Made by a program: the position numbers and the translations under genes. This document shows positions 3,283-6,339 of a DNA stretch of 64,000 bases, one piece after another. Under the pieces are notes generated by a model, which was not told the origin of the DNA, made no database searches, and was given only the letters and a program-made list of their open reading frames with translations. How positions within the stretch are numbered: the stretch's first letter is position 1; each line of letters begins with the position of its first letter. Source of the stretch: a virus; UHGV virus genome UHGV-0171787; one strand, given 5' to 3'.

Positions 3283-3322
3283 TCGACAAATTAATTATTA
3301 ATAGTATAGGAGCTAATATAAC

Positions 3323-4384
3323 ATGGCTAGTCCAACTTTATTTGTATCGTATGACCAGAATGGTAAAAAACTTTCTTTTGCTAACTGGATTTCTGTTCTG
3401 TCCCCTCAGGATACCCCGTTCGTATCTATGACCGGTAAAGAGTCTATCAACCAGACTATCTTTAGCTGGCAGACCGATGCACTGGCAAGCGTTGACGGTA
3501 ATAACGCACACGTCGAAGGCTCTCGTGCTGAAGACGGCGAAATGAAACCGACTGTTATCAAATCTAACGTTACTCAGATTCTGCGTAAGGTTGTTCGTGT
3601 TTCTGATACTGCTAACACCACCGCTAACTACGGTCGTGGTCGTGAACTGATGTATCAGCTGGAGAAGAAAGGTAAAGAGATCAAGCGTGACCTCGAGAAA
3701 ATCCTTCTGTCCGGTCAGGCTCGTACCGACGTTCTGGCTGACCAGTACCTGACTAACTCTGCAACTGATCCTGCTGTTGTTGGTCTGAATGACACCCATA
3801 CAGCTCGTAAGACTGGTGCATTCCAGTTCCTGTGTGCTCACGGTGGTCTGGCTGGTGGTGTTGTTGACAAGACCAAGAATGGTCCTGCTGACCCGGATAC
3901 TGGTGCAATCACTGTTAAAGTTGCACAGAATGCTTCTAACCCGACCACTAACATTGGTTTCGACGAAGCTGATATCTTTGATATGACTCTGCAACTGTAT
4001 ACCGCTGGTTCTGAAGCAGATATCATCATGATTAACCCGGCTCATGCTAAGATCTTCGCTGGTCTGCAAGAAAATACTCAGGGTTCACGTAAGCGTATCT
4101 TTGAGAACACCAAGCAGTTCATCTACGAAGTTAACAGCATCACTGACCCGCTGGGCCAGAGCTACAAAATCATCGTTAACCGTTGGATGCCTACCGATGC
4201 AGTTTACTTCTTCCGTAGCGCTGACTGGACTCAGATGGTTCTGCGTGCTCCGAAACGTACTGAACTGGCTAAAGATGGTTCTTATGAGAAATGGATGATT
4301 GAAATGGAAGTTGGTCTGCGTCACCGCAACCCGTATGCTTCCGGCGTTCTGTTCACTGCTGCGGGAAAGGTAGCGGCGGCGTAA
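3323..4384 (+). CDS. major capsid protein (zero-frame product)
   Basis: 353-aa ORF after the scaffold gene with a good RBS context (aggagctaatataacATG); canonical capsid position. Confidence 0.75.
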   Translation: MASPTLFVSYDQNGKKLSFANWISVLSPQDTPFVSMTGKESINQTIFSWQTDALASVDGNNAHVEGSRAEDGEMKPTVIKSNVTQILRKVVRVSDTANTTANYGRGRELMYQLEKKGKEIKRDLEKILLSGQARTDVLADQYLTNSATDPAVVGLNDTHTARKTGAFQFLCAHGGLAGGVVDKTKNGPADPDTGAITVKVAQNASNPTTNIGFDEADIFDMTLQLYTAGSEADIIMINPAHAKIFAGLQENTQGSRKRIFENTKQFIYEVNSITDPLGQSYKIIVNRWMPTDAVYFFRSADWTQMVLRAPKRTELAKDGSYEKWMIEMEVGLRHRNPYASGVLFTAAGKVAAA

Positions 4385-5487
4385 CAGTAGATTCCGTAAC
4401 TGTTAGTCCTTCGTCGGTTGCAAGCCTTCCGACGGGGGCTACTCAGCAGTTTACAGCTACAGCAGAAATGAGTGACGGCTCCACAAGCACAACTGGATTT
4501 AATTGGTCCGTTGAAGGCGGTGGGGCTATTTCTGTTTCTGGGCTATACACTGCACCGAGTGCGTCGCAAGAAACCCCAGCAATTATTACGGCAACGAAGT
4601 CATCCAAGAAAGGGACGGCTACTGTTAATTCTATCTACGAACCAGCGACTATTGTATCAAAAGGTCCTATTACTGGTAAGATTGGTGGCAGCACTACAGC
4701 ATTCACCACAATGTTTACAGCAACCAACTCAGCATTCTCTGATTATGAGTTTGAAATCACTCCTCCGTCAGCAGGTTCTTTTAACCTGTCGGGTGTATTT
4801 GGTTTAGATGACAATGCATCTGGAACAGTGACTGTAAAAGCAACGCATAAAACTCAAACCTCAGTTACTGCAACAGGGACAATCAGTGGTGTAATTCCTA
4901 AAGCTACTATCACAGGTAAGTCTCTTACCGGTAAGGTTGGTGGTGATGTGATTCCTTTTACTGACATGTTTACTAGTAACAAACCAGCATCGGAATTTAC
5001 TTACGCACTGACTCCTGATGGTGAAGTTGGTTCAATCAACACTACTACTGGTGCACTGACTTTAGCACTGGCTCCTACAGATGAACTTATGAGTGTTAAA
5101 GCAACCCATAAAACACAAACTTCTGTAACAGCTACTGCTACAATTACAGCAACACCGAAGTTGACAGGTCTTGTCCTTTCTTCTGTGACTAACACCACGG
5201 TTACTGGAAGCCCTGCGGTTCCGGCTGAATCTGATACAATTACTATCACTGATTCAGGTGTTGCAGGTGTTGCTCGTGTAGATGGGGTTCCTCAAGGAGC
5301 TTTAACTGGAGCTTTGGCCTATGATGTAGAAGGTACAGATTCTTCATTGATGACAGTGGATTTAACCAGCAATGTGTTAACTATCACCCTGTCAGCACCG
5401 ATTACCAGTGAAGATACAAAAATTACCATCCGAACTAATCCGGGTTCTGATGTTTTCCGTACTTATATTGTTAAATCTGGTGCATAA
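3323..5487 (+). CDS. capsid / Ig-like (Big_2-type) fusion protein made by -1 frameshift at 4363-4369
   Basis: The -1 frame reads ...GKGSGGVTVDSVTVSPSSVASLPTGATQQFTATAEMSDG... straight across the capsid stop. The Ig-domain sequence begins before the ATG at 4468, so the listed ORF 4468..5487 is a truncated view of this extension. Confidence 0.55.
4363..4369 (+). other. candidate -1 programmed ribosomal frameshift site (G GGA AAG)
   Basis: X XXY YYZ heptamer in the capsid frame, five codons before the capsid stop. The -1 frame is open from 4303 and encodes Big_2-like Ig domains through 5487. Inverted repeats follow at about 4382-4404 and 4414-4436. Confidence 0.6.
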
Positions 5488-5493
5488 GAATAA

Positions 5494-5524
5494 AGCCGCC
5501 TTCGGGTGGCTTTTCTTGTTTTAA
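5494..5524 (+). terminator. rho-independent terminator after the capsid/Ig gene
   Basis: AGCCGCC-UUCG-GGUGGCU hairpin followed by a T-run. Confidence 0.6.
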
Positions 5525-5586: not shown

Positions 5587-6339
5587 ATGGCAATGCCAGA
5601 TGTGGCCTATCCGATTAACACGTATGGCTGGCTTAAGAAAGCTGTTGCCTTGTGGGCCGATCGGGACGATGATGAATTTGTCAATCAAATTCCAAACTTT
5701 ATTAACTTTGCAGAGAAAGAGATCTATCGTAACTTACGTATTCCTCCTCTGGAAAAAGAAGTGTATTTAGATATCAAAGATGGAGTGGCTTATATTCCTC
5801 CTGATTACTTAGAAGCTCAATGGATGATGAGAGCCAAAGATGGTGCAATCTTCCAAGTAACATCTCCTGAAGAGATTAGCTATCGTAGACAGCATGGAAC
5901 AATTAATCCATCTCACTGGAATAACCAACCTGTTAACTTTGCTCGTTTCGGGAGTCGTTTCATTTTCTACCCTAGTATTGAAGCAGATACTCCATACTAC
6001 CCTGATGATGGAAGCCCTTTGATTCCAGCAGAAAACTCAGTAATTCTTAGTTATTATGCAGATCCACCGGAATTCCACGAAGATACAGATACCAGCGCTA
6101 TTCTTACTATAGCACCAGAACTTCTTCTGTATTTTACCCTACGTCATGCTTGTCTGTTTGTTCAAGATGATAACGGTGTTCAGAAATGGTCAGCATTAGG
6201 AAAAGCTATCCTTGATGAAATGGTAGAGCAGAACAAGAAACAAGAGTACTCAGGTTCACCTATCGCAATTCCGAATAACATGACTCGACTTCAGAGCAGC
6301 TTGCCTGATATTTATGGTATTCGCACTTCACGTGTATAA
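5587..6339 (+). CDS. virion structural protein (function unassigned)
   Basis: 250-aa ORF with an RBS (aaggagga) immediately downstream of the capsid module. Confidence 0.5.
   Translation: MAMPDVAYPINTYGWLKKAVALWADRDDDEFVNQIPNFINFAEKEIYRNLRIPPLEKEVYLDIKDGVAYIPPDYLEAQWMMRAKDGAIFQVTSPEEISYRRQHGTINPSHWNNQPVNFARFGSRFIFYPSIEADTPYYPDDGSPLIPAENSVILSYYADPPEFHEDTDTSAILTIAPELLLYFTLRHACLFVQDDNGVQKWSALGKAILDEMVEQNKKQEYSGSPIAIPNNMTRLQSSLPDIYGIRTSRV

Follow-up and report, generated by a model that had tools for sequence, protein, structure and literature searches.

The stretch of DNA considered here is the virus genome UHGV-0171787 from UHGV (64,000 nucleotides (nt), one strand, referred to as a whole as the window), which contains between positions 3323 and 5487 the gene of a major capsid protein (MCP) and, overlapping its 3′ end in the -1 frame, a long open reading frame (ORF) encoding immunoglobulin (Ig)-like domains. 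Very probably, a capsid-Ig isoform of 721 amino acids (aa) is made from these two frames by -1 slippage of the ribosome at the heptamer located at positions 4363-4369. According to this scheme, most ribosomes would read 3323-4384 to give the 353-aa capsid protein, and a minority, whose P-site tRNA-Gly and A-site tRNA-Lys are paired with GGA and AAG, would slip back by one base on G GGA AAG. From 4369 onwards these would read the -1 frame, which encodes a Gly-Ser linker followed by four Ig-like β-sandwich domains, until the stop codon at 5485. The 721-aa isoform, which should be built into the prolate head because its capsid body is complete, would take the place of some of the normal subunits and would display its four domains on the outer surface of the head as a built-in decoration.

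The capsid frameshift is already known, since it has been published and annotated for this group of phages, of which the window offers an ordinary instance. The frameshift was described in the papers devoted to phages SU10 (2014), Privateer (2021) and YF01 (2023). The Privateer paper (2021) reports that the minor capsid protein was found in virions by mass spectrometry, and mentions earlier observations of the frameshifted product in phiEco32 and SU10. The product of the latter two phages is reported from their virions. According to the YF01 paper (2023), the heptamer and the two isoforms characterise the entire group, the extensions being of variable size. In addition, G_GGA_AAG is listed as highly shift-prone in Escherichia coli, and Ig-like domains added by frameshifting to phage structural proteins are treated as a recognised class (Atkins 2016 review).

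As a discovery, the feature consequently carries little weight and its practical value lies in the annotation, the correct gene model for the window being a 353-aa capsid gene plus a joined coding sequence (CDS) of 721 aa. Besides this corrected model, the present analysis adds evidence based on AlphaFold that a protein begun at the annotated Met would be cut within a domain, a survey of relatives in which the heptamer is invariant while the extension spans 178-545 aa, and limited covariation for two hairpins.

Reading frames at the end of the capsid gene

The features on which the gene model is built are the following:

3323..4384, + strand, major capsid protein, the zero-frame product of 353 aa, HK97 fold, SU10_MCP family (assigned from Pfam, PHROG and sequence identity)
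4303..4384, + strand, overlap, open in the zero frame as well as in the -1 frame
4363..4369, + strand, slippery heptamer G GGA AAG of the X XXY YYZ type, correctly phased to the capsid frame, proposed site of the -1 shift
4369..5487, + strand, -1 frame segment of the fusion CDS (372 codons and a stop), which joins 3323-4369 to give the predicted 721-aa capsid-Ig isoform
4369..4380, + strand, Gly-Ser linker GSGG in the -1 frame, the same bases encoding the variable VAAA tail in the zero frame
4468..4470, + strand, ATG used by gene callers for a separate 339-aa 'Ig domain protein', read here as the internal Met 34 of the extension

The zero-frame codons at the end of the capsid gene read GCG GGA AAG GTA GCG GCG GCG TAA, with the stop codon at 4382-4384. 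The heptamer is thus divided as G GGA AAG in the capsid frame at 4363-4369, in the X XXY YYZ phase of a -1 site, and its AAG occurs as the fifth codon before the stop, as the initial annotation had stated. The -1 frame, interrupted by a TGA at 4300-4302, is open from 4303, again in agreement with that annotation, up to the TAA at 5485-5487. This overlapping ORF is devoid of a start of its own: the first domain that it encodes begins at 4387, and the only start codon, at 4468, is not preceded by a Shine-Dalgarno sequence. A slip at the heptamer yields a product of 349 + 372 = 721 aa with the junction ...FTAAGK/GSGGVTVDSVTVSP (GSGGVTVD), so that the peptide extending across the fusion junction is ...AAGK-GSGGVTVDSVTVSPSSVASLPTGATQQFTATAE...; the fusion of roughly 720 aa with the junction AAGK/GSGGVTVD, predicted earlier, is reproduced by the reading frames.

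The window contains no excess of GGGAAAG (7 copies, compared to 7.2 expected), and the case for the site is accordingly made from its phase, its position and the open frame rather than from its frequency. Of the seven copies, the one at 4363 is alone in lying in phase inside a long ORF, six codons from the stop, with 349 open codons upstream and 372 open codons of -1 frame downstream; the remaining six copies have 2-30 open codons upstream. The heptamer holds the only GGA codon of the capsid gene (1 of 26 Gly codons), and the four GCG codons found among its 36 Ala codons are all located at 4361-4381, i.e., in the slip site and the overlap tail. The G+C content of third codon positions (GC3) amounts to 0.456 before the shift, in the capsid, and to 0.282 after it, in the extension, and Leu is encoded by CTG in 19 of 23 cases before the shift and in 5 of 19 after it. 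This relaxed codon use after the shift fits a thinly translated region.

Domains, conservation and modular variation of the extension

Four domains follow one another along the extension:

4387..4617, + strand, domain 1, Big_2 bacterial Ig-like domain (Pfam PF02368), with AlphaFold strands from residue 7, starting 81 nt upstream of ATG 4468
4642..4899, + strand, domain 2, β-sandwich repeat without a Pfam family, AlphaFold predicted local distance difference test (pLDDT) score >90, 43% identity with domain 3
4900..5160, + strand, domain 3, second copy of the domain 2 repeat (AlphaFold; 43% identity with domain 2)
5161..5484, + strand, domain 4, C-terminal β-sandwich with AlphaFold strands at residues 267-370

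The AlphaFold model of the extension, built on 45 aligned homologues, displays a mean pLDDT of 93.1 and consists of four all-β domains covering roughly residues 5-88, 92-177, 180-263 and 266-372. Scanned alone (extension residues 1-94), domain 1 matches Big_2 on residues 7-83 with an E-value of 1.7e-5 and a score of 25.1 bits against a cut-off of 22.8; Big_2 is not reported by Pfam scans of the full 721-aa fusion or of the 372-aa extension, and domain 4 gives no significant Pfam match. Foldseek matches of the extension (E-values of 1e-8 to 1e-12) comprise titin, DSCAM, protocadherins, SU10 virion and tail chains, and Leptospira LigA, a bacterial Ig-like protein. Domains 2-4 are predicted β-sandwiches of the kind arranged in tandem Ig or cadherin-like arrays, and are Ig-like by predicted fold only, domain 1 alone having a sequence-family match. 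The Big_2-like Ig domains announced by the initial annotation upstream of ATG 4468 are therefore retained as such for domain 1, which starts at 4387, and the three others keep the Ig-like designation on the basis of their predicted fold.

The end of the capsid gene was read in relatives from GenBank (L001-L003, L015-L026, L142), in contigs from IMG/VR (L004-L014), in nine metagenome contigs and in five Logan/NCBI contigs; the relatives read represent about 30 of roughly 100 Kuravirus genomes. A scan of metagenomes with an 18-mer around the site returned 115 stretches, nine of which are true Kuravirus capsid ends, the rest being chance matches. In all Kuravirus-type sequences of this sample (at least 24 distinct haplotypes), GGGAAAG occurs at the same capsid codon and the -1 frame leads without a stop into the same Big_2 domain. 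The slip site of the window aligns column for column with those of Paul, YF01 and phiEco32, and the linker encoded in the -1 frame of the relatives reads GGG, GGS or GSG. The Proteus phage Privateer, with a capsid identity of 57%, also possesses GGGAAAG, directly before the stop. The combination of an SU10_MCP capsid, the heptamer at the ...TAAGK codon, a Big_2 domain encoded in the -1 frame and a location between the scaffold and adaptor genes assigns the window to the Kuravirus-type MCP/MCP-Ig arrangement.

Depending on the relative, the extension differs by whole domains. When the window (4369-5484) is compared to L001-L026, L040, L045, L046 and L143-L147, extensions of 178, 217, 264, 271, 351, 372, 437, 443, 455-459 and 542-545 aa are found among the relatives, and the capsid, the heptamer and domain 1 are nearly constant while the length of the extension changes. 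This distribution points to frequent gain, loss or recombination of modules in the extension. The metagenome contig L045, identical to the window around the slip site, carries an extension of 545 aa.

Alternative explanations and downstream hairpins

In the reading adopted by gene callers, the Ig-like region is an independent 339-aa gene starting from ATG 4468, and its product a free decoration protein attached to the capsid by non-covalent binding. Gene calls and most GenBank records of relatives indeed contain a separate 'Ig domain containing protein', and in the SU10 cryo-EM paper gp10 is regarded as possibly a minor capsid protein that is loosely bound. However, ATG 4468, the only ATG, GTG or TTG codon of the -1 frame before 4600, is preceded by AGTTTACAGCTACAGCAGAA, in which no Shine-Dalgarno sequence occurs, whereas the neighbouring genes have AGGAG or AAGGAGG. 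Moreover, the Met is replaced by Lys in the phiEco32, ECBP2, MN05 and Bas94 types and by Leu in L040, L145 and L146, genomes in which annotators choose unrelated GTG codons as the start. In the AlphaFold model, ATG 4468 falls inside strand 29-34 of domain 1; with strands 7-13, 25-27 and 29-34 lying upstream of Met 34, a product initiated there would start inside the β-sandwich and miss the first three strands of the domain. In addition, the 99 nt of open -1 frame located between the slip site and the ATG (4369-4467) encode conserved domain sequence. With its domain 1 truncated, its Met not conserved and its start devoid of a Shine-Dalgarno sequence, the putative gene does not qualify as an independent decoration gene comparable to Hoc or epsilon15 gp10, and this reading is very improbable. 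The preference of the initial annotation for a capsid-Ig fusion is thus upheld by the truncation of the domain, the non-conserved Met, the invariant heptamer, the joined CDS of GenBank and the three papers.

It might also be considered that both heptamer and open frame are relics in the course of decay, with no useful rate of frameshifting in this phage and an extension effectively unexpressed, as in the laboratory stock of SU10, where the continuity of the -1 frame is lost and the head undecorated, so that the extension is dispensable in culture. However, a frame of 372 codons cannot remain open by chance, all four domains have high-confidence predicted folds, and an extension still under selection is indicated by the conservation of the heptamer, linker and domain 1 in at least 24 sequences and by a domain number that shifts in steps of entire modules (178-545 aa); such a decay is accordingly held to be very improbable, slightly more so than an independent gene. 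A change of frame by slippage of the RNA polymerase during transcription, or a readthrough of the stop codon, deserves consideration since both give C-terminally extended isoforms in phages, and has no other specific support. The extension is encoded in the -1 frame and is thus out of reach of a readthrough of the TAA, and the run of three A in the heptamer is too short for transcriptional slippage, which needs homopolymer runs far longer than this. The chance that either of them accounts for the fusion is close to nil.

A few points nevertheless weigh against ribosomal frameshifting as the source of a decorated capsid in this phage. For the phage itself, the fusion product is predicted from the sequence, and the virion product of phiEco32 is known second-hand, via later papers. 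The authors of the Privateer paper (2021) state that mass spectrometry of whole virions cannot fully separate the two isoforms. No classical stimulatory structure is found at 5-9 nt from the heptamer, and the downstream fold is not significantly better than that of shuffled sequence. Finally, the cryo-EM head of SU10, with its 715 capsid subunits, shows no extra or decoration density (SU10 cryo-EM paper). In this respect, SU10 is described as the only member of the group with a premature stop in the -1 frame (YF01 paper 2023), and its loss of the extended isoform, which is consistent with the undecorated head, was confirmed here from its sequence (L142:1891-2434, KM044272). The heptamer is kept; the -1 ORF is broken by an indel of 1 nt, which falls in the loop of the first hairpin after the heptamer and places the Ig ORF in the zero frame, where it is preceded by the two stops TAA and TAG. 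Since the latter is broken, the undecorated head of SU10 shows that the extension is dispensable and does not represent evidence against the mechanism.

The frequency of the slip is probably a few percent, judging from comparable systems; rates of ~10% for T3 and T7 and of ~3.5% for lambda G-T are quoted in the YF01 paper (2023). At a few percent, as in lambda, or at ~10%, as in T3 and T7, and with 715 subunits per head, we infer that some tens of four-domain arms would be carried by each virion, with the isoform assembled into the shell and its domains exposed at the surface. By analogy with what has been proposed generally for phage Ig-like domains, their likely function would be a weak binding to carbohydrate on host or environmental surfaces. 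Such domains, if displayed, are candidates for adherence to mucus or glycans, and the modular extension (178-545 aa), together with the natural knockout represented by SU10, may be of interest for users of Kuraviruses such as ES17 in gut phage therapy. The binding of ES17 to mucin has been attributed instead to its tail fibre (published work on ES17).

Two hairpins occur downstream of the heptamer:

4382..4405, + strand, hairpin 1, TAACAGT / ACTGTTA with a 10-nt loop, the 5′ arm beginning with the capsid stop, 12 nt after the heptamer
4404..4441, + strand, hairpin 2 of 12 bp (outer part 4404-4410/4435-4441, inner part 4413-4417/4429-4433), RNAalifold consensus, 34 nt after the heptamer

The initial annotation had suggested that inverted repeats located downstream could act as stimulatory structures. 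The repeats are present in the window (4382-4388/4399-4405 and 4412-4417/4429-4434), are conserved and show some compensatory change, but their distance from the heptamer and the modest stability of the fold (z = -1.3 to -1.8) leave their stimulatory role in doubt. Hairpin 1 starts 12 nt after the heptamer in the window and 9 nt after it in the phiEco32 type, the usual spacing of a stimulator being 5-9 nt. In the window, the single-sequence fold downstream of the heptamer is not significantly better than that of shuffled sequence (z = -1.31 and -1.77), and an RNA structure is therefore not claimable from the window alone; an Rfam scan of 4250-4550 gave no match.

When 16 distinct haplotypes are aligned, both hairpins are retained by RNAalifold and the second is lengthened to 12 bp, with 99.6% of the cells paired, a value reached by none of 500 shuffles. 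The pair 4416-4430 occurs as G-C in eight sequences, U-A in six and A-U in two, a synonymous Ser position and a non-synonymous position being altered together, and the pair 4417-4429 as G-C in 12 sequences and U-G in three, with one mismatch. The stem columns of hairpin 1 are invariant in the 16 haplotypes and all four third-codon positions of its loop vary. Altogether, variation affects the third-codon positions of 9/9 unpaired sites and of 3/10 stem sites, the latter three keeping the pairing (Fisher p = 0.003, in a test that is partly circular because the structure derives from the same alignment). Covariation lends the two hairpins a suggestive, though limited, support, the independent substitutions being few and the sequences closely related.

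Other pairings were considered. The stem-loop proposed by the SU10 authors, with the heptamer in the loop of CTGCTGC/GCGGCGG, is not favoured, as its 5′ arm would lie inside the ribosome during the shift and its 3′ arm is not conserved (e.g., GGATCCG in Bas94). A long-range helix (RNAalifold columns 3-10/87-95 of alignment A1, corresponding to 4358-4365/4442-4450) includes the G residues of the heptamer and is uninformative, all its columns being invariant.

It is conceivable, although rather unlikely, that both hairpins form a conserved Kuravirus RNA element tuning the amount of the capsid-Ig fusion. Such an element could influence frameshifting from an unusually long spacing, or could act on termination or ribosome traffic at the zero-frame stop, which forms the first arm.

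A different layout was encountered in four contigs, L009 (4861-5427), L010 and L011 from IMG/VR, of 82-90 kb, and L012 (4861-5190), with capsid identities of 58-66%. No X_XXY_YYZ heptamer occurs in the 20-codon overlap of their zero and -1 frames, and the -1 frame still runs into a Big_2/Ig-like domain. The likeliest candidate for an in-phase shift-prone motif, as read from these sequences, is A_AAG, which belongs to G GUA AAG and precedes the stop by two codons; the sole other in-phase tetramer, C_CCA/C_CCG, is found at Asn-Pro codons. In L009 and L010, a GC hairpin of 6 bp begins precisely 6 nt downstream, with a long second hairpin after it (fold z = -4.9 and -3.6), which looks like a weak slip site associated to a strong stimulator, the opposite of the Kuravirus layout. 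These more distant relatives (L009-L011) appear to have swapped the strong heptamer for a weak A_AAG and a strong hairpin at the canonical spacing of 6 nt. If true, this family of capsids would represent a natural series showing how the strengths of slip site and stimulator offset each other.

Tandem capsid paralogs occur in place of the frameshift in three other sequences. The Salmonella phage SE131 (L022:1485-4261) possesses a capsid gene of 312 aa and, behind it, a capsid paralog of 586 aa that carries its Ig-like extension in frame; four capsid-like ORFs are found in the Aeromonas phage APT65 (L024:551-4745; 310, 310, 307 and 428 aa) and in L014 (89-4909; 411, 447, 361 and 307 aa). Gene duplication appears as an alternative route to decorated capsid subunits in prolate podophages.

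Genomic setting, annotation and comparison with known systems

The region 3323-5487 is matched by 126 phage records, nearly all from phiEco32-like E. coli podophages (Gordonclarkvirinae, mostly Kuravirus), the top nucleotide match being phage Paul with 90% identity. The 24.5 kb that follow the region share ~91% nucleotide identity with phage ES17. The genes of the window are arranged in the Kuravirus order, i.e., a portal-sized ORF, a 78-aa ORF, scaffold, capsid, extension, adaptor and tail fibre. The 353-aa capsid protein matches Pfam PF17236 SU10_MCP (E-value 1.5e-76) and PHROG 1328, major head protein (E-value 3.5e-118), and shares 93-99% aa identity with Kuravirus capsids. The signals located on both sides of the two frames are as follows:

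3308..3312, + strand, capsid Shine-Dalgarno sequence AGGAG (read from the sequence), common to the 353-aa and 721-aa products
5492..5523, + strand, intrinsic terminator 3′ of the extension, a 9-bp stem followed by a T run

In the record of phage Paul, the equivalent AGGAG site is annotated as the ribosome-binding site of both CDSs. The terminator, AAAGCCGCC-TTCG-GGTGGCTTT plus the T run, is strong and is located directly after the stop of the extension, before the adaptor gene at 5587. The terminator closing the capsid transcription unit thus follows the extension and not the capsid stop, which supports the synthesis of the fusion by frameshifting. The same terminator is annotated in Paul, and in SU10 a terminator likewise occurs 3′ of the Ig ORF. 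The interval from the capsid stop to 4468 contains neither a convincing terminator nor a convincing promoter.

In nearly all database entries, including all 38 close homologues of a large protein collection (P0001-P0038), the extension appears as a separate ORF starting from an internal ATG or GTG and labelled 'hypothetical' or 'Ig domain containing protein'. Among the GenBank records, this holds for EP335, SR02, SGF2, Bas89, Bas94, MN05, ShigP1 and Ptacy1479, the extension being labelled as a second 'major head protein' in ShigP1. The mis-annotation is systematic, as a joined CDS is annotated only in Paul, YF01 and Privateer among the GenBank records read; the Paul record bears the note 'Frameshift at GGGAAAG; Frameshift in PhiEco32 major capsid protein product as well'.

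With its Kuravirus relatives phiEco32, Paul, YF01 and SU10, the window shares the SU10_MCP capsid, the codon at which the heptamer occurs, the direction of the shift, the Big_2 first domain and the gene order. It differs from them only in the size and make-up of the extension, which consists of 372 aa and four domains, as in EP335, compared to 178 aa in phiEco32 and ~545 aa in Paul and YF01; at the nucleotide level, the extension is 83% identical to that of EP335 and 90% identical to that of Paul. Privateer shares these features as well, except that its heptamer is immediately adjacent to the stop codon. Outside this group, the arrangement resembles that of T7 10A/10B and of T3 gene 10, in which a -1 shift near the end of a podophage major capsid gene gives a minor, C-terminally extended subunit of the shell; in T3 gene 10 the extension is also Ig-like. 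However, T7 and T3 differ from the window by another capsid family, another slippery sequence and a much shorter extension. The lambda G-T genes are reported to use the identical heptamer G GGA AAG (Levin, Hendrix and Casjens, 1993), and are not known to have a strong stimulatory structure nearby. They differ in that G-T is a tail chaperone gene, the product of which is an assembly factor absent from the virion and not a structural decoration. With respect to the Ig-like domains frameshifted onto phage structural proteins (Fraser et al. 2006; Atkins et al. 2016), the window corresponds to a textbook instance, without any difference in kind.

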